Source of the DNA: Azolla caroliniana
Taxonomy: Eukaryota > Plantae > Polypodiophyta
Assembly (NCBI GenBank): GCA_043228905.1
Contig: JBHGNT010000022.1
Location: forward strand, 8,246,001 to 8,310,000
Reading direction: 5' to 3'
Length of the DNA: 64,000 nucleotides
Both the position numbers and the translations under genes were made by a program. A model generated the notes under the pieces. That model was not told where the DNA came from and searched no databases. It worked only from the letters and a program-made list of their open reading frames with translations. Below, piece by piece: positions 1,945 through 61,728 of this stretch. The first letter of the stretch is position 1; each line of letters begins with the position of its first letter.

Positions 1945-2405
1945 TATCAGGAATAGTACTAAACAGAGATAGGATTAGTACTAAACAGAGAGAGAATTAG
2001 TACTAGAGAAGGGAAGTACTATTAGAACTAAGGGGACGGGACTACGTAAGACTCCCGAGAGAGGAAGAGAGAAGAGGAGAGAGAGAGAGAGATAGCGAGG
2101 ACGAGAGATGATGATAACAGATTATATATTATAAGAAGAGTAAGTACAAAAAGGGCTATGAGGCTAAAGACTGGCGTTGAACCAATTTGGTTCAACATAA
2201 TGCCTAGTGCCCTCTTTTATAGTGTTCTCAAGAGTAATCCTCAAGCTTCTAGAATGTTCCAGAGAAATCTGGAATATACATTAATTTCCTATAATAAAAT
2301 GTAAATGAAAATAATATCTTACGTATTACAATAGATGAAATAATGGTCAAGAGCTCGACCCATATAACCTAAGGTCATGGGTTCAAGTCTTGCCATATCA
2401 TGACA
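1945..2405 (-). repeat. 5' LTR of chromovirus copy 1
   Basis: On the minus strand starts TGTCATGATATGGCAAG and ends TATTCCTGATA; matches the LTRs at 19301 and 27443. Confidence 0.88.
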
Positions 2406-16148: not shown

Positions 16149-16906
16149 TGTCGTAGTGTAATTCGCACACTACGTGAAAATCACATTTTTGTCCCTCTGG
16201 ATGGAACCGATGAGAACCGGATGAAGGATGGAATCGGCAAGTAGGAACCGATAAGGAGACCTGGTAAGAACCGGATCAAGCAGAACCTGCAAGAGCCGGA
16301 TAAAGAAGGCCGGTGAGAGTCTCTCACAAGATGAAGAGACAAATTTGTAAATAGAAGAAAAGATTGTTACATGCATAGGGCAAGATTCGAACCCTGTACC
16401 TCCATGTGAACGATTTTTAAGCCTTACCACTATATTAGCATATTATGAATTGTAAAGTTATACTAAACTTTATCCCATGTAAATATTCTAGATATGCATG
16501 GTACAAAAAATTATTCATGCATACACACTCGAGTTAAAAGAAAAGTTGGGATAGGAAGCTAATCATGCACATGCAGTGTGCATGAAAACTAAAGTTAGGA
16601 AAAGCATGATGCTTGCATGTGATAAACTTAGACTCTTCCAACACTATATAAGGAAGAGAGAAAGATGTATAGGTGTTGTTGATTTGTATAAGGTTGGAAT
16701 AAGATAAAACTATTCGTGGGATTCATGATTTTGCCATCTATTTCTCTCTTACATTCTAAGTATCAATTAATACACTATACTCGTGGGATTCATGAGTTTC
16801 ATATCTTCCTTCAAATATATCTCTTTCTTGCAATACTTTCCCCTAGTCCAAAACCCAGCGGTTCCCACCCAACTCACGTAACGATCTGACGCCGAAAGGC
16901 ACGACA
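16149..16906 (+). mobile_element. Solo LTR (TGTCGT..ACGACA family), 4-bp TSD ACGT
   Basis: Termini TGTCGTAG/CACGACA; homologous to 61018-61728. Confidence 0.88.
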
Positions 16907-16929: not shown

Positions 16930-17461
16930 TGTCATGAATGCACGTGATACAACCATCTTATATATAGTGGAGTCCCCGGGATAAATTAACTTACCACTAA
17001 AGCCACTACTGAGTGCTTTAGAATTTGTATATTTTCTTTTCATATTCAGTAATTTGTAGGAAGCAAACATATAGAAACCGTGGGCACAAAACCATGGTTT
17101 TAGCCCATGGTTTGAGCTCGTGGTTTTAGCCCATGGTTTTAGCCCGTGGGTTTAGCCCGTGGGTTTAGCCCATGGAGAGACCTATAAAAGCCTATAGTTG
17201 GGCTTGTGTAAGGGGGGAAGTGATGTAAGTAAAAAAGAAACTTTTAATCAAAGATTTGAGTTATCCTAATGGTGATGTATCTTGTCTCGAAAAACTAAAG
17301 CCAAGGGTTCAATCTCTATCTCCATCTCTCTCTCTCTCTCTCAATCCATCTATCTATCTTCAATACTTTCTCGCTTACGCTGCTAAAAACATCGAATCCT
17401 TCCGGTCTAGGACCCCAGTGATCCCGCTTAGTTTCGCGAACACGCGAGGATTTCCTCGACA
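16930..17461 (+). mobile_element. LTR of a related subfamily (TGTCATG..CCTCGACA); flanks do not match, so probably recombinant
   Basis: From about 16985 to its end it is near-identical to the solo LTR at 58733-59325; contains TTAGCCCRTGG repeats. Confidence 0.75.
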
Positions 17462-19612
17462 CCGGAACGATTCGGACCGGAAAGGGTCGAATCAGAAGGG
17501 AACGTCGGCGATCGCAACAAGTGAAGAAGAACTTATGCTCATTATTGAGGAGAATGAGTTAAACCTTGTCGGCGATGAGACAACGTGGGTTGTCAATTCC
17601 GGAGCATCGTTCCATTTGACACCGGACCGAAAATGCTTCTCATCCTACATAGCCAGAGATCATGGTTGTGTCCGGATGGGGAATGAAGGTACATGCCAAA
17701 TTGTCGGCATAGGAGATGTGTTGTTGACGACATCAACCGGATACAAATTGTTGTTGAAAGAAGTTTGACACGTTCTGGAGGTTTGGTTGAACCTGATATC
17801 AGCCGGTTGGCTAGATGATGAAGGCTACACGGGTAACATCCAGAACAGAGTCATGAAGTTCAGCAAGGGAAGCTTTATCGTGGCTCAAGTCTGGAAGATC
17901 AACACGTTGTACATGATGCATGCATGGATATGCTTGGAAGAAGTGAACGTAGCATCCAACACTGCCGGTGAGCTATGACACAAGAGACTATGTCACATGA
18001 GCCAAAAGGGGATGAGAAGACTTGCCAAAGACAACCTCATTCCGAAGATGAAAGACGTGCATCTTGAGAAATGCACCAATTGCTTAGCCGGCAAGCAAAA
18101 CCGAACATCCTTCCAGTCAAAAACACTGATGAGATGGAATGCACCACTGGAGCTACTACATACCAATGTGTGCACGTGGACATGAAGTCACATGCGGGAT
18201 TGCAGTACTTTGTGACGTTTAAGGATGACCACAGTCAGAAGTTGTGGGTCTCACCATTGAAGACGAAGGATCAGGTGTTGTCTGTCTTCAAGGAACTCCA
18301 CGCAAGAGTGGAAAGAGAAACTGGTTGGAAGCTGAAAGCGGTTCGAGTAGGTAATGGAGGAGAGTATTGGGGGCAGTTCGAAGAGTATTGTCGATCGAAG
18401 GGAATCTAGCTCGAATTCACCGTGCCGAAAACGCCAGAACTAAACGGGTTGGCCGAATGGATGAACCAGACCGTGATGGAGAGAGTCTAGAGCATGTTGG
18501 CACATGCAACACTGCCCAAGACATTTTGGGCTGAGGCACTGATGATGGCAACGTACGTGATTAACAGGTCACCCCGGCACCCTTGGAAGGAGACACACCA
18601 TAGAGAGCATGGACCGTTAAAGACGTGTCTTATCGGCATCTAAAGGTGTTCGGGTGTCTGACATATATGCATGTTGCAAACGACAAGAGAGCAAAACTAG
18701 ATCCAAAAGCCAGGCCATGCATATTCCTCGAATACGGTGATGATGAGTTCGGTTACCGGGTGTGGGATCTAGTCGACAAGAAGGTGTTCCGGAGTCAGGA
18801 CATAGTCTTCATGGAGGACAAGACCATTTCCAACTTGGAGTCGGAGAAGAAAGTGATGAACTCCGGATCATCCAATGAAAACCGGCTTGAGGACACAAGG
18901 ACTTACCCGGTTGAAAACCGGATGTTGGCCGGCAACTTGATGACACTCGACGAACTGGCCGGATATGGACAAGAAACCGAACCGACCGAAAATGATGATG
19001 AAGAAGAAGACACCGGAACTGGACAAGATGCTGAATCGGATTCGGATTTGGATTCGGATTCGGAACAAATGGAGGAACTGGTGGTCAGAAACCAAGGACG
19101 GAGATATCCAGAACAAGTGGGCTGAAACCAAGAGATGCCAAAAATCCACCAAGGTACAAAGCCCGAATCGTGGTGAAGGGGTTCTAGCAGAAGAAAGGAG
19201 TGGATTTCGACGAGATCTTCGTCCCGGTAGTAAAAATGACATCCATCCGGACCGCAAGCATGGACCTCGAGGTAGAGCAACTGGATGTCAAGACGGCATT
19301 TGTCATAATATGGCAAGACTCGAACCCATGAACTTATGTTACATGGCTCGAGCTCTTCACCATTACACTATCTATTGTAATACATAATATATTATTTTTA
19401 TTCAAGTTTTACTATAGAAAATTAATGTATATTCCAGATTTCTCTGGAACATTCTAGAAACTTCAGGACTACTCCCGAGAACACTATAAAAGGAGACACA
19501 AGGCATTATTTCAAACCAAATCGGTTCAACGCCAGTCTTAAGCCTCCTAGCCTTCCTTGTATATTCTTCTCACATAATATATCGTTGTCATTATCATTTT
19601 CTCTACCTCGAT

Positions 19613-20177
19613 TCCTCTGTAAATCAAGCCTTTTTGCAACGCCAATGTATCATGACATGGGACAAATGTGGAGGCTCGCGCTTCACACATTATACTACAC
19701 ATGTTGCACCTAACTACAAAACCATATTCTTTGCGAAACAGGGAAATTGTACACATTGATACATGCTAGAGCCCATACCGTTATTTTCCATTCGAACCAT
19801 TGCTTCCATGCGACTTAGCTCACATGCATTGCGATGTGAAACAGGGCGTTGGGGCACAAGTGATGAGAGTGGTCGGCAATGCACACTTTGCCCTAAACAA
19901 GTTCGCGAGTCTGAGTATCACACTTTGATACAATGCTCTACCTTTGATCATATTCGACCATGCTTTCCACATCTCTTCGACCGAGCCCAATCTTTGCATG
20001 AATTCCTCTCACAACCACAATCTGTACTCTCGATTGCAACATTCATTGGTAAAGTTCTTGAACATCTAGAGTCACTACTCACTTTGACATGTATCACGTG
20101 AAATGTAATATTTCTGGCCTCATAGGTCATATTTGACCTCCGAAGACGATAATATAATCTATCTATCTATCTATCTA
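19613..20177 (+). mobile_element. 3' fragment of a non-L1 LINE (RTEX/CR1-like) with (ATCT)n tail, inserted in the chromovirus 5' LTR
   Basis: RLSSHALRCETGRW..CTLC..ESEYHTLIQC C-terminal motif; absent from the 3' LTR. Confidence 0.75.
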
Positions 20178-22131
20178 TCTCTCCTTCTCTCGAGTGTTCT
20201 ACACCCTCTATTCCTCTTAGTACTAATATTCCTCTCTTAGTACTAATTTCTTCTCTATCTCGGTACTATTCCTGACAGTTTGAACTGATTTTTCTCCTTC
20301 CGTCTTCTCCTTTCCTCCTCTTCATTTTATCTTCTTACATAACAGTTTGATCGGTCTTCCTACAAAATTTGATGGGACCTGATCACAATTTAGAGGTTTC
20401 TGAATCAGGTATGTTCAATGATTCAAATGCATCCTTCTCGATATCCCACTGACGCATCACGAGTGGGACTAGTAGGCACTCTACTTAGTGGCTCAACATT
20501 GGCATGGTTCGCTCCGTTGTTAGAAAAGGAATCTCCATTACTAAACAATTTTGAAGAATTTATAAGTTAGTTTAAAACCTATTTTGGAGATACTGACAAC
20601 ATAAGGACAACAATCAACAAAATCCGACGACTACGCCAAGGTGATTGTCCAGCTTCCGCATACGCTATAGATTTCCGCCTCCTCGCATCCGATATCCCTT
20701 GGGATGATCAAGCATTGATGGAGGAATTTCGTTATGGTTTACGCAACGATGTCAAGGATGTACTCTTGACCTTCCTCGAGGGAGTCATATAATGCGTCTC
20801 CAGTGAATACTCCGACTCTGATGGAGATTGACAATACACGTCATTGCGGACCATTATCGGAAGAAGAAAAGCAACGACGTCGAGCAAATCGACTATGTCT
20901 TTATTGCAATGGACCAGGGCATATTGCAGTAAATTGTCCCCATAGGCCAAGAAGACAGGTAAACCAAATAGTTGCTAGTTCTAATTGTACTAAACCCGAG
21001 TCTATTTCAGTAGGAATATCTGATAGTCCTAATAGTACTAATAGCCCAAATCTAGCGAACAAATTTGATGTACTTAGTCAGTTAGAAGAAGAGTTAAATG
21101 AATAAGTCTAGCTAAAATAGGAATTGTTTGGTTGGACAACCCTAGATCTGTGCAGCCCATTAGTGGTTCCATTCCCTCTAAGCAAGTTAGCAATGTGTTC
21201 GTAGCCCAAGTAACAGTTAGTACTAAAAGTACCCCTCCAGTACTTGTGACTCTTAGCACTTCTAGATATCTCTAATTCTTGCTTCATGGATAGGAATTTT
21301 GCCCAAGCTCATCAAATATCTCTCAGAAAACTCCCGCGTCCAGCCTCTGTAGTAGCCATTGATGGTCATCCCATTGCTTCCGAAAATATCATAGAAGAGT
21401 CAGAGCCCGTTAATATTGTCCTAGATAATCTAGCGTGTGTAGTATCATTTAATATAACTAGTATCCCAGAACATCCCATTGTTTTAGGATTACCATGGTT
21501 CGAATTACATAACCCAGACATAGATTGGAGAACAAGAGAAATCTGGTATCGATAAGCTAGAGGATCTACTCATAAGATTGCAACCATTTCACTACATCAA
21601 TTGCGGGAAGAAAGACACAAGGAAGAAATGTTTCTCTTCGCAATATCAGTAAAACCCTCTGACACCACTAAAGAGGAGTCCACTGTTCAACTTCCAAAGA
21701 AGTATCATCATTATGCCGATGTGTTCGATAAAGTACAAGCTAATACGCTTCCTCACCATCGACCGTATGATTGCCCCATCGATTTACAACCGGGAAAAGA
21801 GCCACCGTGGGGACCGATCTACAATTTGTCAACAACCGAGCTAGAAGTCCTTTGAGCCTATATGGAGGAGAATTTGGAAAATGGTTTCATTTGGCATTCG
21901 AAATCTCCAGCCGACGCACCCATTTTCTGTGTCAAGAAAAAGGATGGATCACTTCGTCTCGTAGTAGATTATCGTTGCTTGAATAAGGTCACCATCAGAA
22001 ATAGGTATGCACTTCCTCTTATCTCAAGTCCTTTAGAATGGATCAATGGTGCAAGGTTCTTCACGAAGATCGACTTACGGGGGGGAGCATATAACCTCGT
22101 ACGGATCCGAGAGATGAATGGAAAATAACGT

Positions 22132-25090
22132 TGTCGTGGAGAAAACTGGCCATAGGAGAAAACGGGGGAAAAGACGCAGGAACCGACCCTTACGCGTGGC
22201 CAGACTATTTATTAAGGTGTACATAACCAGATCTGATTTAGCTGATGTAAATATACTAGGTAGTACACATTAATTGTCTAGGGAATCCAAGTGTATCTCT
22301 GTCCGATGGGACAGAGGATAAATGTATGTAACCGAGGATAAAAGGGAGGGGAGAAGACTGATACAAGGACCATGCATTTTTGAGAGGGAAGTGTTGTCGG
22401 ATTGGGAACCGAGCTCTCTCCTCCACTATCGTTGTTCCTTTTGCAGGGATTTGGGTTAGGTTGGTTGCCTCTATTGCATGAAAACCCGTGTGCTTTCGGT
22501 AGAGGCTCCACTGCGTATTTCAGTGCATGTGTTCATGTCACCAGCTTGTCGGTTGTAACATTGCAAGCTCGGTAATCTATACTGTTATTGGAATTGATTC
22601 GTTTGTTTCTGTCTCTCTGTGTTTCTGCGAGTCTCTCTCCCTCTTCTCTCTCACGCTCCTCGGTTCAGGGTCCCTGCGGTCCCGCCGTACTTCATACGCG
22701 AGTGCGTAACAACACGACATCAAATTGGTGAACCCGACGTGAAGAGGCAGCGAGGACGAAGATGGAAGACAAAGACTTCGACTTTGCGGAGATGATGGCG
22801 AAGATTGTGATGGATGCCCGACGGAAGAAGGCGAGGCAAGATGCGACTCAACAAGTCGTCGAGAGGGTGGTCGATCGAGTTGGCCGATTCAACGAGGACA
22901 ATGTCCCGAGGTTCTTGAAAGCGTACAATGTCGAGATGACGAAGAGGGGCGTGGACGAAGCGATGCGGCTAGAAAATTTTCGTCGAGTGGTAGCCGTATT
23001 AGTGCACAAAGAGGTCAAGGAGCTTCAAGAAGCTCACGAGTCATGGGATTCCTTTGAGGGAGCTCTATTGGAGGCATATGGATACGCGAAACTGGAGTGG
23101 GTATGCCGGCAACCCGATGGGGAGCGGTCGACAACAATGTGGTCTATGAGTGGCAGAGAAGAGAGGGCGGTGAGTGGCTATGCACTACCGCAAGAAGAGA
23201 GCTCGATGTACGATCAACCGGAGGAGTACGACCTAGAGGCGTTGGTATGGGAAGCGTGCGAGAGCATGAAGGCGAAGTTCGAAGCCAAAGAAGGGCTTAT
23301 TATGGAGTCGGGCCAGAGACGATCGGAGGATGCGGAGGAAGAAGCCTCCCTACGCGTGGACGATGGGGTCGATGCATAGGCCGGAAGAGCGTGCAACAAT
23401 GACGACGAGGGAGAGGGTGCGGAGCAAGAGACCCTCTCATCCTGTGGAAAAGGGACGGCCATGGATGAGGCCGGTGACTACGAAGCAGGGAGCGCCACTT
23501 CGAGAGTGGGCGGAGGATTCGGGACACGGTGGCCCGAAACATCAAGCGGGGAGGAGATGAGCGGTGGTGCCAGGACCTTACCCACACCGATTCTAGAGAC
23601 TCCAGTGTCCCGCCCGAGAGTCGGTGTGAGACCTAGAGTGACTAACGGTGGCGGCGGCAAGGCGGGCAACCAAGACGACGGCAAGGAGATCGAGGAAGAG
23701 GAGGCGGCAAGCGTAATCGAGGCTTCTACGATCGAAGACGGTGTAGCCACGGACAACGACGTCCGGATGGAGGTGGCTACGGTTCTAGAGACTCCGGCAT
23801 CCGGCCCGAGAGCCGGTATGAGACCTAGAGTGACGGACGGTGGCGGCGGCAAGGCGGGTGACCGAAACGAAGAGGAGGATGCAAACCGAAGAACGAGCGT
23901 GCATTCGGGGAACGATAACAACACATGGGAAGAGCCTACGAAAGGCGAGCTTGGAGCGGAGAGAGTTGGCATGCGGAGGTGTTCGGGGCGCGGACACGAT
24001 CGAACCGACGGAGGGGCATACGCGGCACACAAGGCGTGGAATCCGGCGTACAACCGATGTGACCGGGGGCCCAATTGAAGGGCATACATGGCGGACAAAG
24101 TCGGAGTGGCCGGATCGAGGAAGAGAAGGCGCGAACATCGAATATGGTGGATCGGATGGATTCGGTGGTTCGGGGACAAGCAGTGGACCTGGTGGATCAG
24201 ATGGAGCCGACAGATCGGGATTGGAAGCAGCCGGCAAGGCGGTCGGGTGCCGGGACGGCGGAGGACCCTAAACCCTAAACCGGTTTATCATCATCGCCAA
24301 AATCTCTCACCTTTTCCCTCTTGGCACGTACCAGTGGATGTGCGGTTTGGTGGGGGCAGATGTCGTGAAGATTTCCGGCTACGGTGAGAAAACCGGGAGG
24401 GACAAATAAAATGGAGATGTGCAACATTGCACATGCACTTGTAAATTTGTGTAATAAGAATAAGTAAACAAAATGTAGTGGGAAGGGTAATAATCTAAGG
24501 TGCTAAAGGTGCACCACGAAGTTCATAGAGGAATAATGTGATGTGCACTTTGTAGAGTAGAATGAGTAGTGAGCTCGTGTAAAAAAAGTAAGAGAGAGGA
24601 GAGGTAAAAAGTAGAGGGGAGACAAGCTAAGAATTTACAGAGATAGAATCATTATATAAGAGAGAGTTAATGGGCTAGTGGATAGTCACATTGACTTCTA
24701 GCTAGAGGTGCATGGTTTAAATCTAGTCTTATAGTGTAGCGTGATTTAAGGAATTTTATTCCTTTTTTGCATTAAAGACAAAATTGGCGACCCCCCCTTC
24801 CTTTTTTCCTATAAAAGGAGGTCGAGGGGGGTTCATTTGGGGTTTGTCTATTTTGGGTGAGAGAGGTATACCACTTAGGTCGAGGGGTTCTATTCGGTTT
24901 TAGGGTTTCTTCTAGGGTTTTCTTCTTGCGTTTCTTTTAGGGTTTCTATGCTTCTTTGCTTATTTATCCGGTTAGGGTTTTCTTGTAGTCGTTTTGGGTG
25001 CGGCCTATGCGGTCTTGGTTGTAATTTTGTTTGTGAACTCTTAATATAGAATGTTGATGTTTCTTGTTGTGTGGGTGTATCTTGCCTCCA
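22132..25090 (+). mobile_element. Non-autonomous gag-only LTR element inserted in the chromovirus RT; 5' LTR 22132-22719, tRNA-Trp PBS, truncated divergent 3' LTR from 24361
   Basis: TGTCGTG..CACGACA; PBS TGGTGAACCCGACGTGA at 22726-22742; purine tract TGGTGGGGGCAGA before TGTCGTG at 24361; no pol motifs. Confidence 0.8.
22762..23379 (+). CDS. Truncated gag-like capsid ORF (205 aa)
   Basis: ATG just after the PBS; GRFNEDNVPRFLKAYNVEM..SWDSFEGALLEAY resembles a retrotransposon capsid N-terminal domain. Confidence 0.6.
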   Translation: MEDKDFDFAEMMAKIVMDARRKKARQDATQQVVERVVDRVGRFNEDNVPRFLKAYNVEMTKRGVDEAMRLENFRRVVAVLVHKEVKELQEAHESWDSFEGALLEAYGYAKLEWVCRQPDGERSTTMWSMSGREERAVSGYALPQEESSMYDQPEEYDLEALVWEACESMKAKFEAKEGLIMESGQRRSEDAEEEASLRVDDGVDA

Positions 25091-27214
25091 TCTATTCTCA
25101 TGATTCTCATGTACTGTTAGTACTAAAACGATTTCGAGAACATGGTCTTTATGCAAAGTTGCAAAAATGTAGTTCGGGTGCAACCAGGTGGAATTTCTGG
25201 CCTATGTCATCTCCTCGGAAGGTATCTCCATGGATCCGCGTTCGTTGCGAGATGTGCAATGTTTTTTGGGCTTTGCCAATTTCTACCGCAAGTTTATATA
25301 GGATTGCTCAAAGCTTGTTTGGCCTCTCACACAACTTACTAAGAAGGGACAATCGTTCATTTGGTCTGAAGAAGCGGACATGGCTTTTGAGAATCTTAAG
25401 GAGGAATTTACATCAGCTCCTATTCTAGCTCACGTTGATCCGGAAAAACCATTCATCATGGAAGCGGACGTGTCCGATTTCACATTTGGTAGCATTCTGT
25501 TACAACAAGGTAATGATGAAAAGCTACATCCTGTGGCTTTCCACTCACGCAAGTGTAACACCGTCGAAATAAACTATGAAATTCATGATAAGGAGCTATT
25601 AGCAATAGTGGACTCTTTTACGCAATGGAGGAATTTTCTAGAGGGATCCTCTCATCAAGTCACCGTATTCAGTGATCACAAAAACCTTGCCTACTTTCAA
25701 AGTGCTCGTGTGTTAAATCGACGTCAAGCTCGGTGGGCCCAATTCCTCACGTGTTTCGACTTCAAAATTACATATCGTCCGAGGAAGCGCCAAGGGAAGG
25801 CATATGCATTATCATGACGTTCGTATCTAGCACTGCGTCCCGGCAAACCATCTTTCAATAACCAAAAGCAAGTAATCTTGGAACGGCACAACTGCAAGCA
25901 ACACAGGTCTTCGGCATGCCCTTGGATTCCCACGTTATCGATACCATACGTGAGGACTTGAAGACAGATGCTTTCGCCCAAGCCATTCTAGCACAAATTG
26001 ATCCCTCTCGAACATCTTGTTCACGGCTACAACAACCAGGTACGGACTATCGACAATTCGAATGTCATGATGGATTACTATTCTTTAAGAAACTCTTGTA
26101 TGTTCCTAATTGTTCTTGCCGCCTTCGAGTAGTCCAAAACTGTCATGACACATATACAGTTGGGCATTTTGGTAGTACTAAGACATTAGATTTAGTACAA
26201 CAATCATTCTGGTGGCCCCATATGTGACAATTTGTCGAAGATTTTGTCCGGACTTGTGATACATGTTGCAGAGCAAAAATGCTAAGGCATCATCCATATG
26301 GTTTATTAGAACCATTACCAATTCTAAGCAAGCTGTGGCAATCCATTGCTCTAGATTTCATCACAGATTTTCCAGTCTCTAAGGGATTCAATGCGATTTT
26401 AACAGTAGTAGATCAATATACGAAGATGGCTCATTTCTTGCCATGTACTAAGGAAATCTCTCTAGTGAAGAAACAACCGAAATTGTCATGCATGAAGTAT
26501 GTCGGCATCATGGCCTTCCTAATAATATCATCAGCGATCGTGGACCCCAGTTCGTCTCGAAATTCTAGAAGCACCTTTTTAAAATGCTCAAGGTCACTTG
26601 TAACCTCTCCTCCGGCTACCACCCGCAAACCGATGGCGAAGCAGAACGAACAAATCAAACGCTAGAGTAGTATCTTTGGTGCTTTCTAAGCTATCATCAG
26701 GATGACTAGGCGAATATTCTCCACTTCGCCGAATTTTCCTATTATAACTCTGTCCACTCATCAACTAAAGTTACGCGATTTTATGCTTATACGGGTTGTC
26801 ACCCCCGGTGGTGTGTATTTGAAACCCCATACTTACCCACAAATCCTTACGCAGAGGATCATTTGGAGCGGTTACGCAATATACAAGCAAATTTATCTAC
26901 TCATCTACAACAAGCTCAACAAACACACAAGGTTTACGTGGATCGTCATTGGCTTCCATACAATTTTAACATTGGACATCGGGTATGGCTACTACGACGA
27001 CACATCACGACTACTTGCCCATGCGAGAAGTTGGATTATCGGCGATTAGGTCCTTTCTGTATTATCGGAAAGATTAATGATGTCGCTTTTTGTCGCGATC
27101 TACCCCCGCAACTTCGCATACATTCGGTGTTTCATAGTTCTCTCCTCGAACCCTATCAAGACCACCATCTCAAGACGTATTCCACAACCTCCATCCCCGA
27201 TCGAACTTGAAGAT

Positions 27215-27400
27215 GGACCTGAGTACAAGGTTGCCGCCATCCTCGATTCCAAGAATGTTCGCAACAAGCTCTACTATTTAGTCGATTGGCTAGGATATAG
27301 TCCCAGCGAGCGTACTTGGGAACCAATAGAAAATGTGACCAATGCTCGTGCTCTTCCTGAAGACTTCCATTGTCAATATCCAGATAAACCGGGTCCTCAA
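27215..27400 (+). other. Chromodomain at the integrase C-terminus
   Basis: EYKVAAILDS..YYLVDWLGYSPSERTWEP. Confidence 0.92.
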
Positions 27401-28618
27401 TCCAAAACGACTCGTGACACTCGTCATTTAAAAGGGGGATAGTGTCATGATATGGCAAGACTCGAACCCATGACCTTATGTTACATGGGTCAATTTCTTG
27501 ACCATTACACTATCAATTGTAATATATTATATATTATTTTTATTTAAGTTTTACTATAGAAAATTAAGGTATATTCCAGATTTCTCTGGAACATTCTAGA
27601 AGCTTCAAGACTACTCCTGGGTACACTATAAAAGGAGGCACAAGGCATTATTTCGAACCAAATCGGTTCAACGCCAGTCTTAAGCCTCCTAACCTTCCTT
27701 GTATATTCTTCTCACATAATATATCGTTGTCATCATCATTTTCTCTCCCTCGATCTCTCACTCACTCACTCTCTCTCTCTCCCGAGTGTTCTACACCCTC
27801 TATTCCTCTTAGTACTAATATTCCTCTCTTAGTACTAATTTCTTCTCTATCTCAGTACTATTCCTGACAACATTCCTACATGATGACCTCGAAGAAGAGA
27901 TCTACATGCATCAACCGGAAGGATTTGAGACCAAGTCAAGATACAAATGTTGAAGAAAGCCCTAAACCAGACTTTCTCAATGAAAGATTTGGGTCCGGCA
28001 AAACAGATATTAGGGATGCACATAATCCGGAACCAGTCAGAGAAGCTGTTGTGGTTGTTATAGGAGAAGTACGAGACAAAGGTGCTTCAAAGGTTCAACA
28101 TGTCGGAGGCAAAACCGATCCGATCGACACTTCCGGCAAACTGCAAGTTGTCCGGAAAGCAGAGCCCGAAGACAAAGGCAGAGAAGTCGGATATGACGAA
28201 GATACCATTTGCCTCTGCCATCGGAAGCTTAATGTATGCAATGGTGTGCACCCGACCGAATATTGCATATGTTGTCAGTGTAATCAGCCGGCTCATGAGC
28301 AACCCACGAAGAGAGCACTAGAACGCAGTCAAGTGGATACTCCGGTATCTGAAAGGCACCTCGAGTATGTGCCTCCGGTTTGGCTCCGGTAAACCCCAAC
28401 TTGACGGGTTCACGGATTCGGATATGTCGGCTGATGTGGATACCAACCGGTCTCCATCAAGATATGTCATGACTTATGCAGGCAGAGCTGTATCATGGCA
28501 GTCAAGGCTGCAGAAGTTCGTTGCACTGTCGACAACGGAAGCGGAGTACATGGTAGCTATGGAAACCGGCAAGGCGATACTCTGGATGAAGGACTTCATC
28601 AGGGAGCTAGGGATCCGG

Positions 28619-34101: not shown

Positions 34102-35169
34102 GATCGACACCAAAAGGACTTTTATAACTTCCAAGTAATGAAAACAAGATTTGACATACCTTTATAACTCGTCTCTCTAGAAAGAATGCTTAACTTTACA
34201 ATCATGGTCTCGAGAACAAAACTCAAGAGGGTGTTCTATATATGCTTTGCAACCATACAATGGAGAAAGGAAACTCAAGTAAAGGCTCGTTGATGTGCTA
34301 TAAAAATTTTAAGTGTGTTGACAAGGTACACTTAATCAAAAGATTTCTCTGTATTGTTAAGATGTTGTGGAATGGCCACTACAGTTTATTCTATCATCCA
34401 AAGGAAGGATGGAAATATCTCAAGCACTAAAGCATACATCTAGTTTTTCATGCCACGATCACATTCTAATTCACAACATTTAATAAATATCTATCTAATT
34501 CACCAACACAAATGTGAGGTCAAGATGGATTCAAGATACATATTGGACCAAGTTGGGAAGCCCCAATTATAACACTAGAACTTCATTTCCCCACATTTTT
34601 ATCCATCATGATATATCGCTATCTATACCTCTTTTCAATGTATTCAAATTTTCAATTCTTATTTAAGAAGCTCCACACACCATAAAAAAAGATTGTCTTT
34701 GGTATCTCGTATATCATATTTGATAGTAGAGGATTAAATTGAATTATTATCTAGATTTTCAAATTCATAGTCAATTCACTATTTTTATATAGTTAGTTCC
34801 CTCTCACCATAGTGATAAGTTATAACACTATTAGCACTAGGTCTTGATTTCAAAACCTAATTTTCTCACCTTTTTATTACTCTGGTTCATAATCAGTGGA
34901 ATTTTGTTTTTGTAACTATTCAGTAATTGGGCCAATAAATCCACAGACATTTTGGGTAAGATATATAATTATTTTTGTTTACCAAGATGCCTCAGTGGTA
35001 TGTTCTTATACTACTAGCCTTAGCTCTTGGGTTCAAAACCTAATTTTCTCACGTCTCTATTGCTTATACATATCCTCTTAATTAAAAACATCCATGTCTT
35101 TGGGCATTGGTTTATCCAATAGGATCGAAGTCATAAAATCGAGAAAAGTATACATGAGGGAAGGGGTCA

Positions 35170-36305
35170 CTAATGAGTTGAAAAGCCACCCCCTAGTTCA
35201 TGGCTTTTGAAAGTATGCTTGGTGGCATTGTCTCTCTAAGAGTGAGAGGAATGCATATCCTCTTGTTAGGCTATCTTTGGTTGCTTGTGTCATTGAAAAT
35301 TTACTTGAGTGAGCACGGAAAGTGACTCCAAGATATATATATGATCCAACTACCTCAAATGGTCTATGAAAGACTGTTATGAGACATTTAGGAACTAACA
35401 TGAGCATATGTGTGGAAGATAAGGACTTAAGTTTAGTTTTCCTTAGATTCACTACCAAATCTCTTTGTATGCAAAAGTCATTTAAGGCATTAAGGTGCCT
35501 TTGTTGGTCATGTTCAGACCTAGAAAGTAAAACTATGTCCTTTGGCTTATGTACCCCCTACCCTAGGTCTACTCCGTTGCCTCCCTTATGAGCAATAAAA
35601 TCAGTAATATCATCAATGTAAATCCCGAAAAGTGTCAATGAAAGGGGAAACCCTTGTTTTACACCAATGGTGCTAGTAAAGCAATTGAATAGGCCACCTA
35701 GACATTATATGCACCTAGAGACTTGCTCATATAACGCATAAATTACCCAAATCATGGTATCTGGTATCTCCAAGCTTTTAAGACGATCAAACAACCATTC
35801 TCAAGGAATTGTGTCAAATGCTTTGTGAAAGTCCACAAAACAACAATATAATTTCCTCTTCTAAGTGTGAAAATATGGTAAATAATAGAGAAGACTTGTC
35901 TAAACCTGACCTGTTTGGGTGCTCGAAAACTTAATGTTTCTATATATTTTCTCGAACATCGTACACGTCCAAAGACTTGCTCATATAAAGCATAGATGCC
36001 CCAAATCATGTCATCTAGTATCTTCAAGCTTTTAAGCCTATCATGTTGGGAAACATCAATTCCTAACATATCAAACAACTGCTCTCTAGGGACTGTGTCA
36101 AAGGCTTTGCAAAAGTCCATAAAACCACAATATAATTTTCTCTTGTGAGCCTTGATCTAGTCAATTAACCATCTATGCGTGAAGATATGGTCAACAGTAG
36201 AGAAGGCTCGTCTATCCCCAACCTATTTGGGTGCTTCCATAACTGCAACATATAGTTTCGTGAGCATAAGACCAATCATAAGGTCTTATATGTATTTGGG
36301 TCCAT
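35170..36305 (-). mobile_element. Degenerate non-L1 LINE RT fragments with an internal duplication
   Basis: DFCKAFDTVPR (a second copy at about 35810-35850), GVKQGFPLSLTLFGIYIDD, VNLRKTK, YIYLGVTF. Confidence 0.8.
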
Positions 36306-36519
36306 CGGGTTCCTTCCTTTATTGTTGAGAAACAGGTCCCTCTAGATGGGAAGAGGATCGCAAGTCGAAGAAAGGACCGAATCAGTTGAGATAAACTCGG
36401 CCGAGGCCGAAAAATCAAACCCATTGCTCAATTCGGTCGTGGACAAAAATTGAATCCGAATCAATTAAGCTAATAATCGAATCGGTCGAAGCCGACTCGA
36501 CGCTATATCTAAAAATAGT

Positions 36520-38390
36520 GTTAATGTGCCCTTGTTAGCCACATGCACGTAGGCAAGACAACCGAACACCCTTAGGTGTTGGTACCACACGTCTTTGTCG
36601 GTCCACACTCTCTGTGGAACATCTCAATCCAGGGGTGGTGAGGGTGATCTATTTATCACATACACTGCCGTCATTAGTGCCTCATCCTAGAATGTCTTGG
36701 ACAACTTGCATATGCTAGCATGCTTCAGACCCTCTCCATAATGGTTCGATTCATCCTCTCATCCATCCCATTGAGCTCAGGCATTTTCAGTACTGTGTAC
36801 TCGAGCCAATTCCCTTCGATTGGCATTACTCTTCGAATTGCCTGCGGTATTCATTGCCATTGTTCGCTCGGGCTACTTTCAGTTTTCGGCCAATTTCCCT
36901 CTCGACTCTCCCTTGGAACTCCTTGAAGACCAACACCTAGTCTTTAGTCTTCAATACAGAAGTCCACGACTTCCAACTACAGTCATCTATGAAGGTCATG
37001 AAACACTGTGAACCAACATGAGACTTTGTGTCTATGTAGCATACGTTAGTATGCACGAGTTCCAATGACATTCTCTTCCTTGTGGGGGGCCTAGTTCGGA
37101 AGGAGGTTCGGTTGTGCTTGCTAGCCAAGCAATTGATGCACTTCTCAAGTTGCATGTTTTTTACCTCCGAAATGAGGTTTTCATCAGCAAGTCTCTGCAT
37201 CCCCTACTCGCTCATGTGGCCCAACCTCTTGTGCCATAGCTCACCCACATTGTCAGCTGTCACATTCGCTTCATCTCGACATATCCGCGCATGCATCAGC
37301 TACAGTGTGTTGGTTTTCCGAGCTTGAGCCACAATCAGGCTCCCTTTGTAGAACTTCATGACGCCGTTCCAGATGCTACCTGTGTAGCCTTCATCATCCA
37401 GTCGACCGGCTGATATCATATTCAATCGAACTTCCAGAACATGTCGGACATCCTTCAGCACTAGTTGACACCCGGTCGATGTCACCAAACACACATCTCC
37501 TATGTTGACAATTCGGCATGATCCTTTATTTCCCATCTTTACAAAATCGTGGTCTCTAACCTTGTACGATGAGAAGCACTTTTGGTCGGGTTTAGGTGAA
37601 ATGCCGCACCCGAATTGACCACACATGTCAATTCTTTGCCGGCGAGATTAACTTCATTTTGTTCGCTAATGAACAACAACTCTTCACTCACGGCGATTGC
37701 TGAGGTGTTCTATGTGTCTAGGATTTTCTTCGGCTCTACACCATCAGCTCCCCCTTTCTCCTTTTGAAGTTGTTGTATAGACTCATGTCTAAAATACCTC
37801 ATATACGCCGCCGCCTTCAGATGCATAACTTCCCAAGTCGATGCATTGATTTTATCTGGCTTGGTCTTGCCATATTGCATCGGCAACCACAAGTCTTTTG
37901 GACACGACCATATCCTGCACTAAATAGTTGGAGCCGGTAAGTTTGAACATTTTGCCAAATGTGTGTTTCATCGCTCGGATAGTAGTTTGTTGAGAATCAA
38001 CTAGCCACAACCGGTTAATACACTTGCGTATGCGGGTGCAAAGATTGAGAATGGTAGCGCTCAGACAGAAAGAAAACAAAAGTGCACAAAACGAGAAAAA
38101 AACTCAAAGAGACGGGATGTTTTATGTGGAAAACTTGAAAGGGAAAAACCACGGGGGTCAAGAAACCCCAAGAAATGAATCACTATACATAGAGAGAGGA
38201 ATATATGGAGACTTGGAGGCAACGACCTCGAGCTCATCTTCGTCTAACAAATGGTGGCAGAGTTACGACCCTCACTCTCTCTCACTCTCACTCTCTTACT
38301 AGTTACAACGACAACTACTCATTGTAACTTGTTACAACTATAATGATCATCAACACATATCTAACTACTTGCCCTAAGTATATATACACT
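36520..38390 (-). mobile_element. Copia family A-like 5' half (partial LTR from 37988, gag, protease, integrase fragments), heavily deleted
   Basis: FKLTGSNY, VKMGNKGSCRIV, LELVHTNVC; degenerate iMet PBS near 37972-37984; a related LTR fragment also lies at about 36322-36500. Confidence 0.8.
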
Positions 38391-39805
38391 TAGCCAAGAA
38401 GAAGGTGATCCGAAGCCGAGATATTTTCTTTATGGAAGAGAAGACAATAGCCGACTGAGAGTTGGAGAAGAGTGTCAACATCAATTCAACCGTGAATAGG
38501 CCTCCAATTATCGATTCGAGCCGAGTTGATGATCGCCTGAATTGAATATCAGTCGATTCGACCAAAATCGGATACGAACTAGTCGACCGAACAGATAATC
38601 GACAAAGTCGAAAGTCGACTGAGGAATGAGGGAACCGGCTGAACAAGGATCTGAATCCAACTCGGATGAAGAGCCGATTGAAGAAATCGAACAAGAGTCG
38701 ATTACGGGGAATGAAGGTCGAAGCAAGCTCCCCAGCAATGGTACCGAAAGTTTGAATCCTTCATGGTGGATCACGGCTTCAACAAGACATAAGATGATCA
38801 TTGTGTGTTGTATGTTGATGATATGCTAATTGTCGGACAGGACCCGAAGAAAATCGGAAGTTTGAAGAAGGCCCTAAGAAAATCATTTGCAATGAAGGAT
38901 ATGGGTTCGGCAAAGCAAATCCTGGGGATGCACATTGTTCGGGATCGAACAAAGAAGTTGCTACGGTTGTCACGGGAGAAATATGTGACAAGGGTGATCT
39001 AGAGATTCAACATGCAAGATGCGAAACCAATCGGTTCGACACTACCGACAACTGGCAAGCTATCCGGAAGTCAATGTCTGAAGATGAAAGCGGGGAAAGC
39101 TAAGATGATGAAGGTCCCCTATGCCTCAGCAATCAGAAGCCTGATGTACGTGATGGTATGTACCAGGCTGGACATTGGATACGTTGTTGGAGTAGTCAGC
39201 CGATATATGAGCAATCCCAGAAGACAACATTGGGCAACGATCAAATGGCTACTTCGGTACCTAAGAGGCACCTCGAATGTGTGCCTCCAATTTGGTTCAA
39301 GTAATCCCACATAGGAAGGTTATACTAATTCAGACATGTCGGCTTATGCGGATACCAGTCGGTCCACGTCCGAATACGTAAGGACTTATGCAAGGGGAGT
39401 CATCTCATGGCAGTGGAGGCTGTAGAAGGTCGTAGCATTGTCGACCATGGAATCCGAGTACATGGCCGCTCGTCGAAGCTGGCAAGGAAGTCGTATGGAT
39501 GAAGGAGTTTATTGGTGAGTTGGGATTTTGGCAAGACGAATTCTGACTCTATTGTGACAACTAGAATGCCATCCACCTTGTGAAGAATGCCACCTACCAC
39601 TCAAGAAAAAAGCACATCCAGAGCAGATATCATTGGCTCTGAGAGCGAGTAGAAGAAAAGGACTTTCCTTTGATGAAGATCCACCTAGCAAAAAATGTAT
39701 TAGAAATGCTGACGAAGGTGCTACCAGCAGAAAAGTTGAACGTGTGCCAACAAAGGGTCGGATTAATGAAGTACCCCATGCCGGAATGAAGGGAGATTTT
39801 GTTGC
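38391..39805 (+). mobile_element. Copia family A-like 3' half (integrase end, RT, RNase H, PPT), inverted relative to the neighbouring 5' half
   Basis: LYVDDMLI, FAMKDMG, VPYASA, PPT-like GAATGAAGGGAGA followed by TGTTG. Confidence 0.82.
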
Positions 39806-39809
39806 GTAT

Positions 39810-42800
39810 CTACTTTTGAACTTCGAAGGGACCGATCCATCGATGCATGAGCGACTCGCTGAGGCCGCGACGACGGATGGGGAAATAGACGAGGACTTTG
39901 TCGTCGACGGGTATTGATGGTCGGCGCAGCCTACATCGTGTTGTCGTTTTTGGCGTAGCTGTGCTTGGTGTAGGTTGCTCGTGATGGCTTTGCGGAGGAG
40001 GGGCTGGAGTTGTTGCAGGTGGAACCACTAGGACACTTCATCAGAGTGGAGTCATGTGATTGGTTGCGGGACTGCCACTTCTGCGGGTAAGCGCGGGTCC
40101 CTTCCGTAAAGGGCCTGAAATGGGCTAATGCAAGTGGAGGCTTGCACAGTTGTGTTGTAGGCATGCATAATGAAGGGCAAGATCCAGTCCCAAGTCGAGT
40201 GCAGCAGATCGATGTAGGCCGAGATTTGTTGTTTTAAGGTTCGATTGAGGCGCTCCATCAATCCATTCGTCTACGGATGGTAGGGTGACGTGAATAATTG
40301 TTGGATTCCTAATTGTGTAGAAACTAGGTGTAGGAGCTCGATGTTGAACTAGGGTCCTCGATCGGACAAGATTTGGAGTGGGAAACCATGGGGGAAGATG
40401 ATTTTCTCCAATAGTTTGGAGGCGATGGTCATAGCCTTGGCATCTGGGATAGCAGCCGTCTCAGCCCAACACGTCAAGTACTCGGTTATGACGATGATGA
40501 ATTTGTTCCCTTCTTGTGACTCAGGAAAGGGGCCCATAATGTCCCATCTCACAATTTCAAATGGAGCTTGAACTTGTATCGGATGTAAGAGGCCTTGAGC
40601 CACTTGAGGTGATTTGATGGCCTGACATAAGTTGCATGATTTGATGTAGGAGGCGACCTCGTGGTGTAGCCCCGGCCAATAGAATTTGCAACGGATTTTG
40701 TCTAGCACCTTATGAAAACCCAAGTGGCCAGACAACGGGTGATCGTGGAAGAAACGAAGGTAAGACAAGCGCAGTTGCTCAGGCACGTAGACCCGGGGTT
40801 CCTTGCCTACTTAGCAAAAAAGCAGGACATTATCCTGGATCATGAATTGCTTGGTGAGGGATGATGTGGGCTCGGCTCGTAGGCGGTGGCAGATGTCTTG
40901 GATTTTTTTGTCGTGTTGTTGCATGTTGGCTATTTGGGACGAGGATATGGGGAAATCGATTGTGTAAGAGGCGATCTAGGTCGCCTGAAAGGATATGCGG
41001 GATAATTCATCAACGACGATGTTCTGGGGACCACAGCGATAGCGCAACATGAATGTGTAATCCTGTAGCGCCAAAACCCAACGGAGTAAGCGACCGGGTG
41101 GATGAGCCTTCTTTATGAGGGAGAGCAATGGCTGATGGTCGGTTTCGACTGATGTATTTGATCCGTGTAGGTATGGGTGGAAATGATGGAATGCCCAGAC
41201 GATGGTGAGCAACTCTTTTTCGGTTGTCAAGTAATTTTGTTCGGCTTTGGTAAGTGATCGACTTATGTAGGAATCGGGCATAGTTGGTCATTGTTATCGG
41301 ATTGGAGCAGGACCGCACCAAGGCCGACATTGGAGGCATCCGTCTGCAGACGGAAAGGCTTCGTGAAATCAAGGTGGGCGAGGAGGTCAGAGGCTTGGAG
41401 TGTTCACTTGAGCTGCAAGAAGCTGGATTCGCAGGCTTCGGTCCATAGGAAGGGTGTGTCTTTTTTCAAGAGCGCGCGTAGTGGGGCTGACAGGTCGGCT
41501 AACAGTGGGATGAAGCGGAGAGAGAACATGAGGAGGCCGAGTAAGCGTTGAAGCTGCTTGACAGTGGTGGGGCGGGGGAATTTTTTGACTGCTTCCGTCT
41601 TCTCTAGGTCCATCTGTACTCCATCGGAGGAGATGACGTACCCAAGGAAGCGGAGGCGCGTACTACCCCATCGACACTTCTTCCATTGCAGCTGCAATCG
41701 ATAGCGTTGAACACAAGTGAGGACCTCCCGAAGGACTTGAAGGTGTTCCACCCAAGTGCTTGTATGTATCAGAATATCATCTAGATAGACAATGACGACA
41801 CGACGGGTGATGAGATCATAGAAGATGGCGTTAGCCATTCGCTGGAATGTGCTCCCAACATCGGATAGGCCAAAGGGCATCCGTGTGAACTGAAAAATGT
41901 CTTTCCTAGTGCGGAATGCAGTTTTGTGGGCATCTTTAGGATTCATAGGGATCTGCTAATATCCCGAGGCCAGATTGAGGGAGGTGAAGTACTTTGATTT
42001 GCCGAGCTGGTCAAGGAGGTCGTCATTACGAGGGAGAGGATATCGATCATGGGTGGTGACATGGTTTAGTTGTCGGAAGTCGACACAAAAATGGTAAGAG
42101 CCATTCCCTTTCTTTACCATGTGTGGCTCCGAGATCCACTCACTCTTGGAAGGTGTGATAATCCCTTGTTGTAGCATAGTTTTGACGTTGTTGTCAATGC
42201 GCTCGTGGTCGAGAGGCGAGCGACGTCGAGGAGCTGCGTGGATGGGGCGGGCGTTGCCTGTAGGAATCGTGTGGCGGATCGGAAAACGGACCGAGGGAGG
42301 TTTTGCAAGTGGTGTAGACAACGAGGGAAAGGTGGCTAGGAGCCGTCGGATGTCGTGGATGCGCTCTGTCGGTGATACCAGGTACTGTGTGTTGCTGATG
42401 TGGGTGGTATCTTGCGGAGTAGTGAAGAGCGCGATCGGAAGGTGATTGGGGAGGATGAGATGTTGTGAGGAGAAATCGAGACAGGCTCGACTATGGAGGA
42501 ACCAATCACAACCTAGGGTGATTGCAAACAACTGGCACGAGAGGACGTAGAAACGATGTTGGATCTGGGCGGAACTGATGGTGAACATGCACATGACTTG
42601 CGTATGTGAGTGGTACACCCGTTGTTGGTCGCCGAAGAGGATTTTAATGGGCGGTGCGTGGCTCGTGGGAAGTTGTAATTGGGTGACTAAATCTGCGCTG
42701 ATGGAAGAGATGTTGTTGCCGAAGTCGAGGAGAACTTCTTGGGTTGTGTGTTGGAGGCGGGCGAAGTTGATGACGTGGAGGCGTGGAAATCCAGGGTCGG

Positions 42801-43869: not shown

Positions 43870-43872
43870 ATA

Positions 43873-57436: not shown

Positions 57437-58732
57437 GCTTTGTACAGTAGTTACACCAATAACTTTATACAATCATCAACTACGACTTCACCTCTGTTTG
57501 CCCTAGGTCATATTTATACTAATATGACTTTCAGGCTATTTACAAATGTAGCCACAATGGGCTAACAGAGACATATTTACATATATGTCCCTTCATCCGG
57601 TGAGAGGTTCTCACCGGGCCTATGTCATCCGGTTCTCACCGGGTTTTCCTTGCCGGGTACTCATCATCCCATCTGGAGGGACCGAAATCCTAACAATCTC
57701 GACATAGTCAATTCCCTGGTTCTACGGGTATCCCATGGCCATCAATCGGGCCTTGTACCCGTTGACCAAACCATCAGCGTTGTATTTCACCTTATACACC
57801 CACTTACATCTTATTGGCTTACAATTCTGGGGAGGGTCAACCAAGTCCCATGTGTCGTTGGCATTGAGTGCCCGCATTTCTTCCTCCATACCGAAACGCC
57901 AATTCGCGTCTTTTGTCGTTTCTACGTAGTTGTCTAGGTCACGCACTTCCACCACCTTTTTCATCTACGCATAATGGTGCGCCATGTACTCATTATATCC
58001 ATACCACAGCACGGGGGTCTTCTAGTAGGTGGATCGGCATAACTTCTGATTCGTCGATTTTAGGGCCCTCTTGGTCAACTTGGACTTCATTTCCAAAGGT
58101 CTGTCTTCATTGTTTTGGGTGTCGGATTCGCTCTGATCCGACTCTTCCTTGTCAGTGTTGTACTCTAGCATCTTCTTCTCTTCCTTTTCCTTGTGTGTGT
58201 ACCGTCTTCTTGGTTCCTTGCGTGGGGAGTGCACACCCGAGTCTCCACTACTCACCGGCTCATCATCTGACTGGTCGTTTCGACGTAGTCTCTCATTTGG
58301 CTTGCTTAGCTTAAATGAGATCAGACTCTCCTCCAAAGTGTCAATATCCTCTTCCTCTTCTTCCCGAATCATGTCGGGTTCAGTGGCCTCATCTTCAGTG
58401 ATCAAGTGGTCGGAGTTGTCAAGAGATGGAGTCGGAGTCGGTAAGGAGTACCATGATGTCGACTCATCGAATTCGACATCTCGGCTCAATAGAACTTGTT
58501 TGGTCTGGGGGTTATAACACTTATACAGCTTCTATTCATGTGAGTAGCCGACCAATATGCACTTCTCCGACTTCGGGTCCAACTTTCTCCTCTTCTCACC
58601 GGGCACATGCACATAGGCTATGTTGTCGAATACCCTCAGGTGTCTTAAGTTCGGCTTCCATCCGAAATACATGTCATGTGTTGACACCTTTTCCCCAATC
58701 TGGTTTTGGATGTAGACCGTTGTCCGAACCAC

Positions 58733-59325
58733 TATCATGAAGATTTTCGGCAACGGTGTGAAAATCGTGTGGAACAAACAAAACCGAGAAAGTGTAATGA
58801 GCACTCAAACATTTGTAAATAAAATAAGTCTAAAGCCTAGTAACCTTTGAGTTCATACAAAGGGGTGCAAGCAAGGCTTGAACCTTGCACCTCCATGATA
58901 AGAGACGAATTAACTTACCACTAAAGCCACTACTAAGTGATTTAGATTTTGTATATTTTCTTTTCATATTCAATATTTCGTAGGAAGCAAACATATAAAA
59001 ACCATGGGCACAAAACCATGGTTTTAGCCCGTGGGTTTAGCCCATGGTTTTTACATCGAGAGACCTATAAAAGCCTATAGTGGCGCTTGTGTAAAGAGAG
59101 AAGTGATGTAAGTAAAACTTTTAATCAAAGATCTGAGTTATCCTAATGGTGATGTATCTTGTCTCGTAAAACTAAAGTCAAGGGTTCAATCTCTCTCTCT
59201 CTCTCTTCATCCATCTATCTATCTGCAATACTTTCTCGCTTACGTTGTTAAAACATCTAATCCTTCCAGTCCAGGACCCCAGTGGTCCCACTTCATTTCG
59301 CGAACACGTGAGGATTTCCTTGACA
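58733..59325 (+). mobile_element. Solo LTR of the 4-bp-TSD family
   Basis: TATCATG..CCTTGACA (decayed TGTCGTG..TCGACA); flanks CCAC/CTGC both derive from CCGC, which restores the host integrase. Confidence 0.85.
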
Positions 59326-61017: not shown

Positions 61018-61728
61018 TGTCGTAGGGTATTTCATACACTACATGAAAAACTTATAAAGTAACGTTTTAGTAAATATGAAGAGATAGAAGAAAATCTCAA
61101 AATAAATAATACATGCATAGGGCAAGATTCGAACCTTGCACCTCCATGTTAATAATGTAATGTCTTACCATTACACTAGCATTTCATTCCTGTTAAAAAG
61201 TAGATGTCCCGCATAAAAAAAGGTAAGTTCACGTAGGATAAACTTTAGTTAAAAGAAAAAGCTACGCATGCACATCTAGCGTGCATGAACGCTATAGTTG
61301 ATAAAAAAACGCACAAGTTAGAAAAAGCATAATCACTTTAGATAAAGTATATAGTCTATCTATAGGAAAAGCATGGAGTCTATAGTTAGAGAAAAAAAAA
61401 CATGGATTCCTAAGACTCCCTCATCACTACATAAGGATGGGGAGCACAATGTAATAGGGGTGTGAAAAATATTTGGGAAATTGGATATATTTCCTAAAAC
61501 ACCAATTAATATAATCGTGGGATTCACAAAGTTTTATATAATCTATCTCTTTCAATCTAAATTCATATTCTTACATAAATATTGATTAATGTAATCCTTG
61601 TGGGATTCACAAGCTTCTAATAATCTATACATAATTAAAATCGCCTCAAATTCTTCCTCTTCCTAGTCCATAACCCCAGTGGTTCCCACCCGACTCACGC
61701 AAATGATCCGGAGCTGAAAGGCACGACA
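61018..61728 (+). mobile_element. Solo LTR (TGTCGT..ACGACA family), 4-bp TSD CCGT
   Basis: Removing the LTR and one CCGT restores the gag sequence seen at about 50695-50725. Confidence 0.92.

Follow-up and report, generated by a model that had tools for sequence, protein, structure and literature searches.

tRNA-derived A and B boxes have been described inside long terminal repeats (LTRs) belonging to the retrotransposon Helenus (TRIMp3), together with Cassandra and Ajax, in which the boxes are conserved with no functional tRNA fold (PMC10886601), and in these respects the elements of Azolla caroliniana described herein are alike. One Helenus family is reported for Selaginella, and according to the same source Pol II promoters and little shared LTR sequence are to be expected of autonomous elements (PMC10886601). 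It also remarks on 'not a few' Repbase LTRs with a likeness to part of a tRNA, and leaves these without description, so that cases of an antisense module may already be on file there. The foamy viruses carry Pol III miRNA cassettes, likewise with A box, B box and hairpin in the LTR of an autonomous element (PMC3993851). As to the sites of Pol III factors, tRNA genes, ETC sites and B2 SINEs are barriers in yeast and mammals (PMC12409998, PMC8136502), and TFIIIC tolerates a box spacing of 32-93 bp in yeast (PMC12409998).

In a 64,000-nt stretch of A. caroliniana DNA (hereafter the window), an earlier note had pointed to an antisense tRNA-like sequence at the edge of a chromovirus LTR. The reverse complement of 19311-19370 indeed reads as claimed and ends 10 nt inside the LTR starting at 19301, in which the module occupies nt 11-70, antisense at the start of U3 and about 115 nt upstream of the TATA box at 19485. 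Since a polypurine tract precedes 27443 and the gag-pol domain pieces are on the plus strand, the element lies on the plus strand and the module is antisense to it. The features of this element are as follows.

19301..20277, plus strand: 5' LTR of a decayed Tcn1-type chromovirus, with an insert of roughly 550 bp (about 19613-20160) splitting it
19310..19363, no strand assigned: predicted long hairpin across the module (z -4.3 antisense, -3.7 sense)
19311..19313, minus strand: CCA (tRNA positions 65-67), at the hairpin base, not a tRNA 3' end
19317..19326, minus strand: B box, equivalent to tRNA positions 52-61 and spaced 44 nt, start-to-start, from the A box
19331..19334, minus strand: RGGT site (tRNA positions 44-47), mutated in this copy and kept across families
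19360..19370, minus strand: A box (tRNA positions 8-19), matching the consensus exactly
19380..19415, minus strand: predicted TFIIIB site, an AT-rich sequence (89% A+T) located upstream of the A box
19485..19491, plus strand: predicted TATA box for Pol II transcription from the LTR, facing the module head to head
19518..19530, plus strand: predicted self-primer, complementary (11/12) to 20278-20291
20770..27439, plus strand: broken gag-pol with zinc knuckle, RT, RNase H, integrase, SH3 and chromodomain
27430..27442, plus strand: polypurine tract, fixing the element orientation as plus
27443..27869, plus strand: 3' LTR, antisense module 27453-27512 with B box 27459-27468

The two LTRs are 93% identical over the first 312 nt, and 4/5 target-site letters agree at the flanks of the element (19301-27869). 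No tRNA primer site was found in this chromovirus, and the 14 nt after the 5' LTR pair with the LTR just past the TATA box. The predicted self-primer region also includes a sense match to the B-box consensus at 19524-19533 (plus), with no A box and probably by chance. An AT-rich stretch upstream is required for a TFIIIB site (PMC13578239); such stretches were 77-94% A+T in four of the five window copies and 63% in the fifth, against 55% for the window, and are weak evidence for a type 2 Pol III promoter because U3 is AT-rich generally.

Besides this element, the window includes the following LTRs.

1945..2405, minus strand: second Tcn1-type copy, its 5' LTR, which carries the module on the plus strand (about 2336-2395) with the A box eroded and the B box at 2380-2389
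16149..16906, plus strand: solo LTR of a second Phygy-type subfamily, antisense module 16384-16437, 4-bp NCGN target duplication
16930..17461, plus strand: relative of the 58721 LTR, with the A-box half kept and the B-box half lost
58721..59325, plus strand: third Phygy-type family, an LTR with the module antisense at 58875-58929 and, past TATA, a module-like stretch in sense at 59139-59192
61018..61728, plus strand: solo LTR of a Phygy-type gypsy element inside a Copia gag, antisense module 61126-61178, 4-bp NCGN target duplication

The same box pair is present in all three chromovirus LTRs as had been noted, the other two being at 27459-27512 (minus) and about 2336-2389 (plus, in the minus-strand LTR with the eroded A box), and the AGGT variable-loop motif is carried by two of the three, being mutated at 19331-19334. 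An identical 12-nt A box was confirmed at 19359, 27501 and 61167, but this identity is nothing special, since A boxes differ among subfamilies. When two mismatches are allowed, the A box alone is not beyond chance in the window (7 seen versus 4.84 expected), while the B-box pattern was seen 7 times versus 1.37 expected, a number reached in 0/100 shuffles. The Phygy-type LTR at 16930-17461 represents a natural mutant for the B-box half. A weak A/B-box pair at 34988-35039 (plus), with a repeat at 34811-34881/34994-35064, lies outside assignable LTRs and is possibly a decayed SINE head; a similar stretch sits beside the module in L313. The Gypsy element at 36097-44082, with 210-bp LTRs, is without the module, and a tRNA-end-like stretch adjoins its LTR at 43873.

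For estimation of the frequency of this module, Tcn1-type elements were selected by protein (chromodomain or integrase) and not by motif. The 110 loci gave 57 tract-anchored LTR starts, from which 10 were dropped, either for a mis-set or doubtful start, where the end is unclear or a module-like stretch is seen (L171, L175, L202, L229), or as distant matches (26-44% identity) without a module-like stretch (L188, L195, L205, L213, L233, L235), leaving 47 starts or 36 distinct ones, which represent about eight families and not 36 independent cases. The A- and B-box consensus patterns were checked against the host tRNAs. An exact B box with an A box (at most two mismatches) was detected in antisense in 23/36 and in sense in 0/36, compared with 0/33 for nt 151-300 and a mean of 0.04 in shuffles, and if one B-box mismatch is allowed, the number rises to 35/36 versus 2.0 in shuffles. 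The earlier note had named as refuting results motif pairs no more frequent than in shuffled LTRs or a family consensus lacking an intact B box; instead, the pairs are far commoner than in shuffled LTR starts (23/36 vs 0.04), and young copies have their B box intact. As for Phygy-type elements, 29/30 integrase-selected loci gave an LTR start, and the strict pair was found in 22/29 (3' LTRs) and the relaxed pair in 28/29; the box spacing is always 43 nt, and the module lies 186 to 354 nt from the LTR start in the 29 loci. In both lineages the module is located upstream of the TATA box wherever one was called.

All Copia LTR pairs recovered in 20 RT-selected stretches (17 pairs, about four families) were without the module, as were six non-tandem LTR pairs of the hand-placed stretches, while one Phygy pair of the same set carries it. 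When 11 host tRNA isotypes alone were used to build a profile, it matched 14/25 Tcn1 and Phygy LTRs, all in antisense, and 0/12 control LTRs. In the 523-Mb genome, the extended B-box pattern gave 4,212 matches and the full exact A+RGGT+B pattern 5,273 modules, each with 0 in the control. On the other hand, when 60 hand-placed stretches (600 kb) were scanned strictly, 9 pairs were obtained versus 0-5 in shuffled and 4 in reversed sequence, indicating that at genome scale the signal of box pairs by themselves is weak, even though 7 of these 9 resemble known module types. The Pol III-type module with A and B boxes is far more general than the earlier note had described. The moss family RLG1 we take to be Tcn1, although the RLG1 paper does not say so. 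No antisense B box was seen by eye in Selaginella SM-Tcn1 (PMC2864245 file S3) or in the moss RLG1 transcript over its first 400 nt (PMC7466625 supplement). Viral contigs contained no relatives, and prokaryote genomes gave 4 pattern matches, of which the one inspected (L396) is not an LTR.

The carriers belong to two unrelated lineages, Tcn1-type and Phygy-type, with only 26% identity in RT-RNase H, in agreement with the proposal that one kind of antisense Pol III-type module is common to different LTR lineages. The intact Tcn1-type relative L121 is about 5.6 kb in length, its LTRs being 98.5% alike and its gag of 392 aa overlapping with a pol of 1203 aa. Gag overlapping pol, the RT-RH-INT-chromodomain arrangement, the lack of a tRNA primer site with an 11/12 self-complement within the LTR, and a 5-bp target duplication at L126 are all found, and Tcn1 elements self-prime (PMC6317226). 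Named close matches include fungal (56-57%) and fish and frog (51-56%) elements, but also Tanacetum proteins (41-52%). The other carriers, some with 1241-aa open frames, show a tRNA-Trp primer site, a 4-bp NCGN duplication and no chromodomain, and a tRNA-Trp primer, a 4-bp target duplication and chromodomain absence are the marks of Phygy (PMC6317226). TatI is also Trp-primed with a 4-bp duplication, but is longer and carries aRH. The names Tcn1 and Phygy were thus assigned from domains, priming type and target duplication. In a tree of 41 of the 44 integrase-chromodomain pieces (L181, L205 and L228 were omitted as too short), families A and A2 were not separated.

With respect to mobility of the Phygy type, a very large burst of near-identical elements with the 1241-aa frame was observed (L337-L364), in which the U3 length before the module varies widely. 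Short elements of about 3.2-3.6 kb with identical or nearly identical LTRs were also noticed (L123, L125, L412), and two of these (L123, L125) carry a single long ORF without Pfam match. The three are likely gag-only non-autonomous derivatives that were recently mobile.

The description of the 19301 module as a tRNA mimic ending in CCA did not hold, because the CCA is located at tRNA positions 65-67, about 9 nt too early for 74-76, and pairs with TGG of the A box. Among 17 anchored modules, CCA was found at 65-67 only in 4 family-A copies and at 74-76 in none. The acceptor pairing is 4/7 at 19301 and 2/7 at 27443, and the module folds as one hairpin; in accordance with the earlier remark that no full cloverleaf can be folded, ARAGORN gave 0 tRNAs and Rfam none in the window. 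A tRNA gene or mimic was rejected on these grounds, that is, no cloverleaf, a misplaced and family-specific CCA, and a single-hairpin fold. The order of A box and B box at the tRNA-like spacing of 43-44 nt agrees with a type 2 Pol III promoter.

The hairpin was analyzed using 23 rows of family A and its relatives, in which the 11 core pairs are 84.5% paired and doubly changed cells number 15 versus 6.9 after shuffling, a control that ignores relatedness, while the number of pairs with double changes (5) was not beyond shuffles (42/500). Together with the conservation of the A box along with the B box at a fixed spacing and of RGGT and the tertiary-core positions, the covariation in this long hairpin is in favor of an active Pol III gene, of which the short structured antisense RNA might function as a small-RNA precursor or silencing decoy, and the Pol III hairpins of the foamy virus LTR provide a precedent (PMC3993851). 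Stems flanking the B box are also visible in other families, and family D (L152) keeps a 7/7 acceptor stem. In 7/9 distinct A2-type relatives, at least four T in a row directly adjoin the B box where the hairpin has its base, as in the foamy virus cassettes (PMC3993851), and a T-run is present some 20-35 nt after the B box in most Phygy copies shown. The terminator distance is, however, not conserved: among 30 position-ordered modules the first T4 lies from 2 nt to more than 400 nt away or is missing, and family A has none inside the LTR, the first T4 being 81 nt past the B box at 19317. The structures differ between families, with no consensus structure given by RNAalifold on alignment A1 and with z values of -4.4, -0.9 and -1.4 for the window Phygy copies, and wobble pairs favor the opposite strand (26 versus 5). 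On balance, a functional Pol III transcript appears unlikely, though with some weight in its favor. The outward transcription into flanking DNA that had been proposed may thus take place for the 19301 family, for which no T4 is in the LTR, but is not general, since the three window Phygy copies carry T4 inside the LTR, 23-51 nt past the B box.

The strand preference of the wobble pairs points to the element-sense RNA instead, because 26 of the 44 non-Watson-Crick cells in family A and its relatives are G-U on that strand and only 5 on the antisense strand, the mean z is -3.4 in sense and -2.7 in antisense, and the loop is more variable than the inner stem. The selected thing might then be a hairpin, immediately 3' of the polypurine tract in the genomic RNA or cDNA, that serves plus-strand priming, strand transfer or packaging, and the boxes would be leftover. 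The strand bias is, however, partly forced by keeping C56 of the B box; the 5' half of the A box and the 43-44 nt spacing are outside the stem and persist in families with other stems or none; and the Phygy module is located 100-690 nt from the polypurine tract. We consider this explanation decidedly improbable. An integrase attachment site was also rejected as the general cause of conservation, since the Phygy module is 100-690 nt inside the LTR.

Conservation of the module was then compared by anchoring 15 family representatives at the B box. Positions 52-56, 58 and 44-47 (RGGT) hold in 12-15/15, while the anticodon-arm positions hold in 4-12/15, and the module is the best-aligned block among the Phygy LTRs, 7/8 other LTRs aligning there with the 61018 LTR. 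In L454, L451 and L456, two antisense modules are in tandem, with the middles diverged and the boxes kept in both copies. From the kept boxes and RGGT, the drifting middles, the best-aligned block and the tandem copies, we infer purifying selection on the module, acting on its boxes. The insertion of a SINE head into U3 once, followed by neutral hitch-hiking, would be an origin as proposed for Helenus and Cassandra by SINE insertion into the LTR (PMC10886601), and losses of module parts are in fact known (LTR 16930, L145, L159). Against such a relic, the boxes persist where the sequence between and around them is saturated, with indication of lower substitution in the boxes than in neighboring U3; the module is kept across families with integrases 47-97% identical to that of L121; and it is present in a second lineage too, always in one orientation, with the boxes kept in both tandem copies. 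Its chance is accordingly rated as small.

Other arrangements of the boxes were also observed. A sense module with A- and B-box-like sequences follows TATA in some Phygy LTRs (59139-59192 (plus), L454, L455), and with the antisense module this leaves the Pol II promoter bracketed by two outward-facing modules. In the young Tcn1 family G (L133-L150), the B box is fused with the LTR terminus and the A box is poor, and within the first 23 nt the B box makes up the loop of a perfect 8-bp inverted repeat.

As to the origin, family A can be aligned with 5/9 Phygy LTRs in a common block at the B box and the following nucleotides, for instance 17/19 nt in three LTRs and 68% over 69 nt with the 61018 LTR, and none of the control LTRs align at this block, while beyond the B box A2 and the active Phygy family are dissimilar. 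In our judgement, one shared donor, either a SINE head or an exchange between LTRs, is somewhat more likely than two independent captures. We infer descent of the module from a tRNA gene or a SINE head, as supported by the 7/7 acceptor stem in L152. Among 90 pattern-selected loci no clear family of a free donor SINE was found, but a few copies stayed unassigned (L241, L246, L313, L425, L450), and no clear best source was found among the 11 host tRNA isotypes. Tandem arrays were also noticed, one of 133-137 bp in L460, with an AGGTC/B-box stretch in the unit, and the other at G000 C8:17.80-17.82 Mb, with about 15 tRNA-Trp-type matches at a spacing of about 1.2 kb.

Host tRNA is known to bridge the genome ends of Ty3 and HIV-1. 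The antisense module makes the genomic RNA complementary to a tRNA and the Phygy elements are primed by tRNA-Trp, so that a host tRNA could be imagined to bridge the two genome ends through its complement in U3. The longest exact word shared with any of the 11 host isotypes is, however, only 8-13 nt and mostly within the boxes, the Phygy modules share 6-7 nt with tRNA-Trp, which is outside their top three among the 11 isotypes, and the Tcn1 elements are self-primed; bridging by tRNA is thus very hard to credit.

The boxes, their spacing, the orientation and the place upstream of TATA are found in young intact elements of both lineages, and the module lies between the flank and TATA, faces away, has an AT-rich stretch upstream and no conserved terminator. 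This arrangement suggests, at close to but short of an even chance, that the module is a selected TFIIIC/TFIIIB site, which would serve the Pol II promoter of the element as a chromatin barrier or a seed of open chromatin. TFIIIC and TFIIIB would bind the A and B boxes at the outer edge of U3, with TFIIIB predicted to occupy the AT-rich sequence that separates the module from TATA, in a head-to-head arrangement with the Pol II promoter. The outward facing would keep Pol III off the Pol II promoter of the LTR, the bound complex would stop silent chromatin from spreading in from the insertion site, and outward transcripts, if any, would be by-products differing in length. The absence of a conserved terminator distance favors such a DNA site over a defined RNA.

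Some observations count against the barrier. RGGT is, to our knowledge, not a known TFIIIC element, and together with the spacing fixed at 43-44 nt it hints at a constraint at the RNA level. The compensatory changes in the family A hairpin point in the same direction, since a DNA site needs none. The module is dispensable somewhere, as judged from the loss in the 16930 LTR, the poor A box of L133, and, as read by eye, SM-Tcn1 and the first 400 nt of RLG1 without antisense B box, and the Copia elements of the same genome thrive without it. In the parts of the review PMC9540200 consulted, no barrier role of plant TFIIIC is described. A wider proposal, which we hold to be doubtful, is that two unrelated autonomous lineages each domesticated a tRNA-gene promoter as an anti-silencing device, with thousands of mobile TFIIIC/Pol III sites shielding the LTR promoter, short antisense hairpin RNAs in some families, and chromatin boundaries seeded genome-wide.

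A literature description of antisense A and B boxes in autonomous plant LTRs was not found, the coverage being outside subscription journals and Repbase entries. Compared with the known systems, the carriers fit Tcn1 and Phygy by domains, priming type and target duplication (PMC6317226, PMC2864245), and the descriptions of the two in the consulted parts of these papers include no tRNA-like U3 segment. Helenus is non-autonomous and 311-1263 bp in length, whereas the Azolla carriers encode gag-pol (L121, about 5.6 kb) and have a Pol II TATA box; its tRNA part is in sense in the supplement entries and is proposed to drive the element RNA, whereas the Azolla module is antisense (PMC10886601). Membership in Helenus/TRIMp3 was rejected for size, non-autonomy and the sense orientation, with only the boxes in the LTR being common. 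The foamy virus cassettes are demonstrably transcribed and processed, whereas transcription of the module, in a plant host, is putative and its terminator is not conserved (PMC3993851). The barriers formed by tRNA genes, ETC sites and B2 SINEs resemble the module in having TFIIIC-type boxes at the edge of a promoter region, but are known from yeast and mammals and not as parts built into LTRs (PMC12409998, PMC8136502). The module is real and likely under selection. LTR promoters for small RNA have been described for tiny non-coding elements, where these drive the element RNA, and backward, conserved promoters in two distant coding lineages point to another use. If TFIIIC is bound, plant retrotransposons would carry their own chromatin barrier, and more than 5,000 sites would shape the genome; the young intact copies offer a ready test of TFIIIC sites as barriers in plants.
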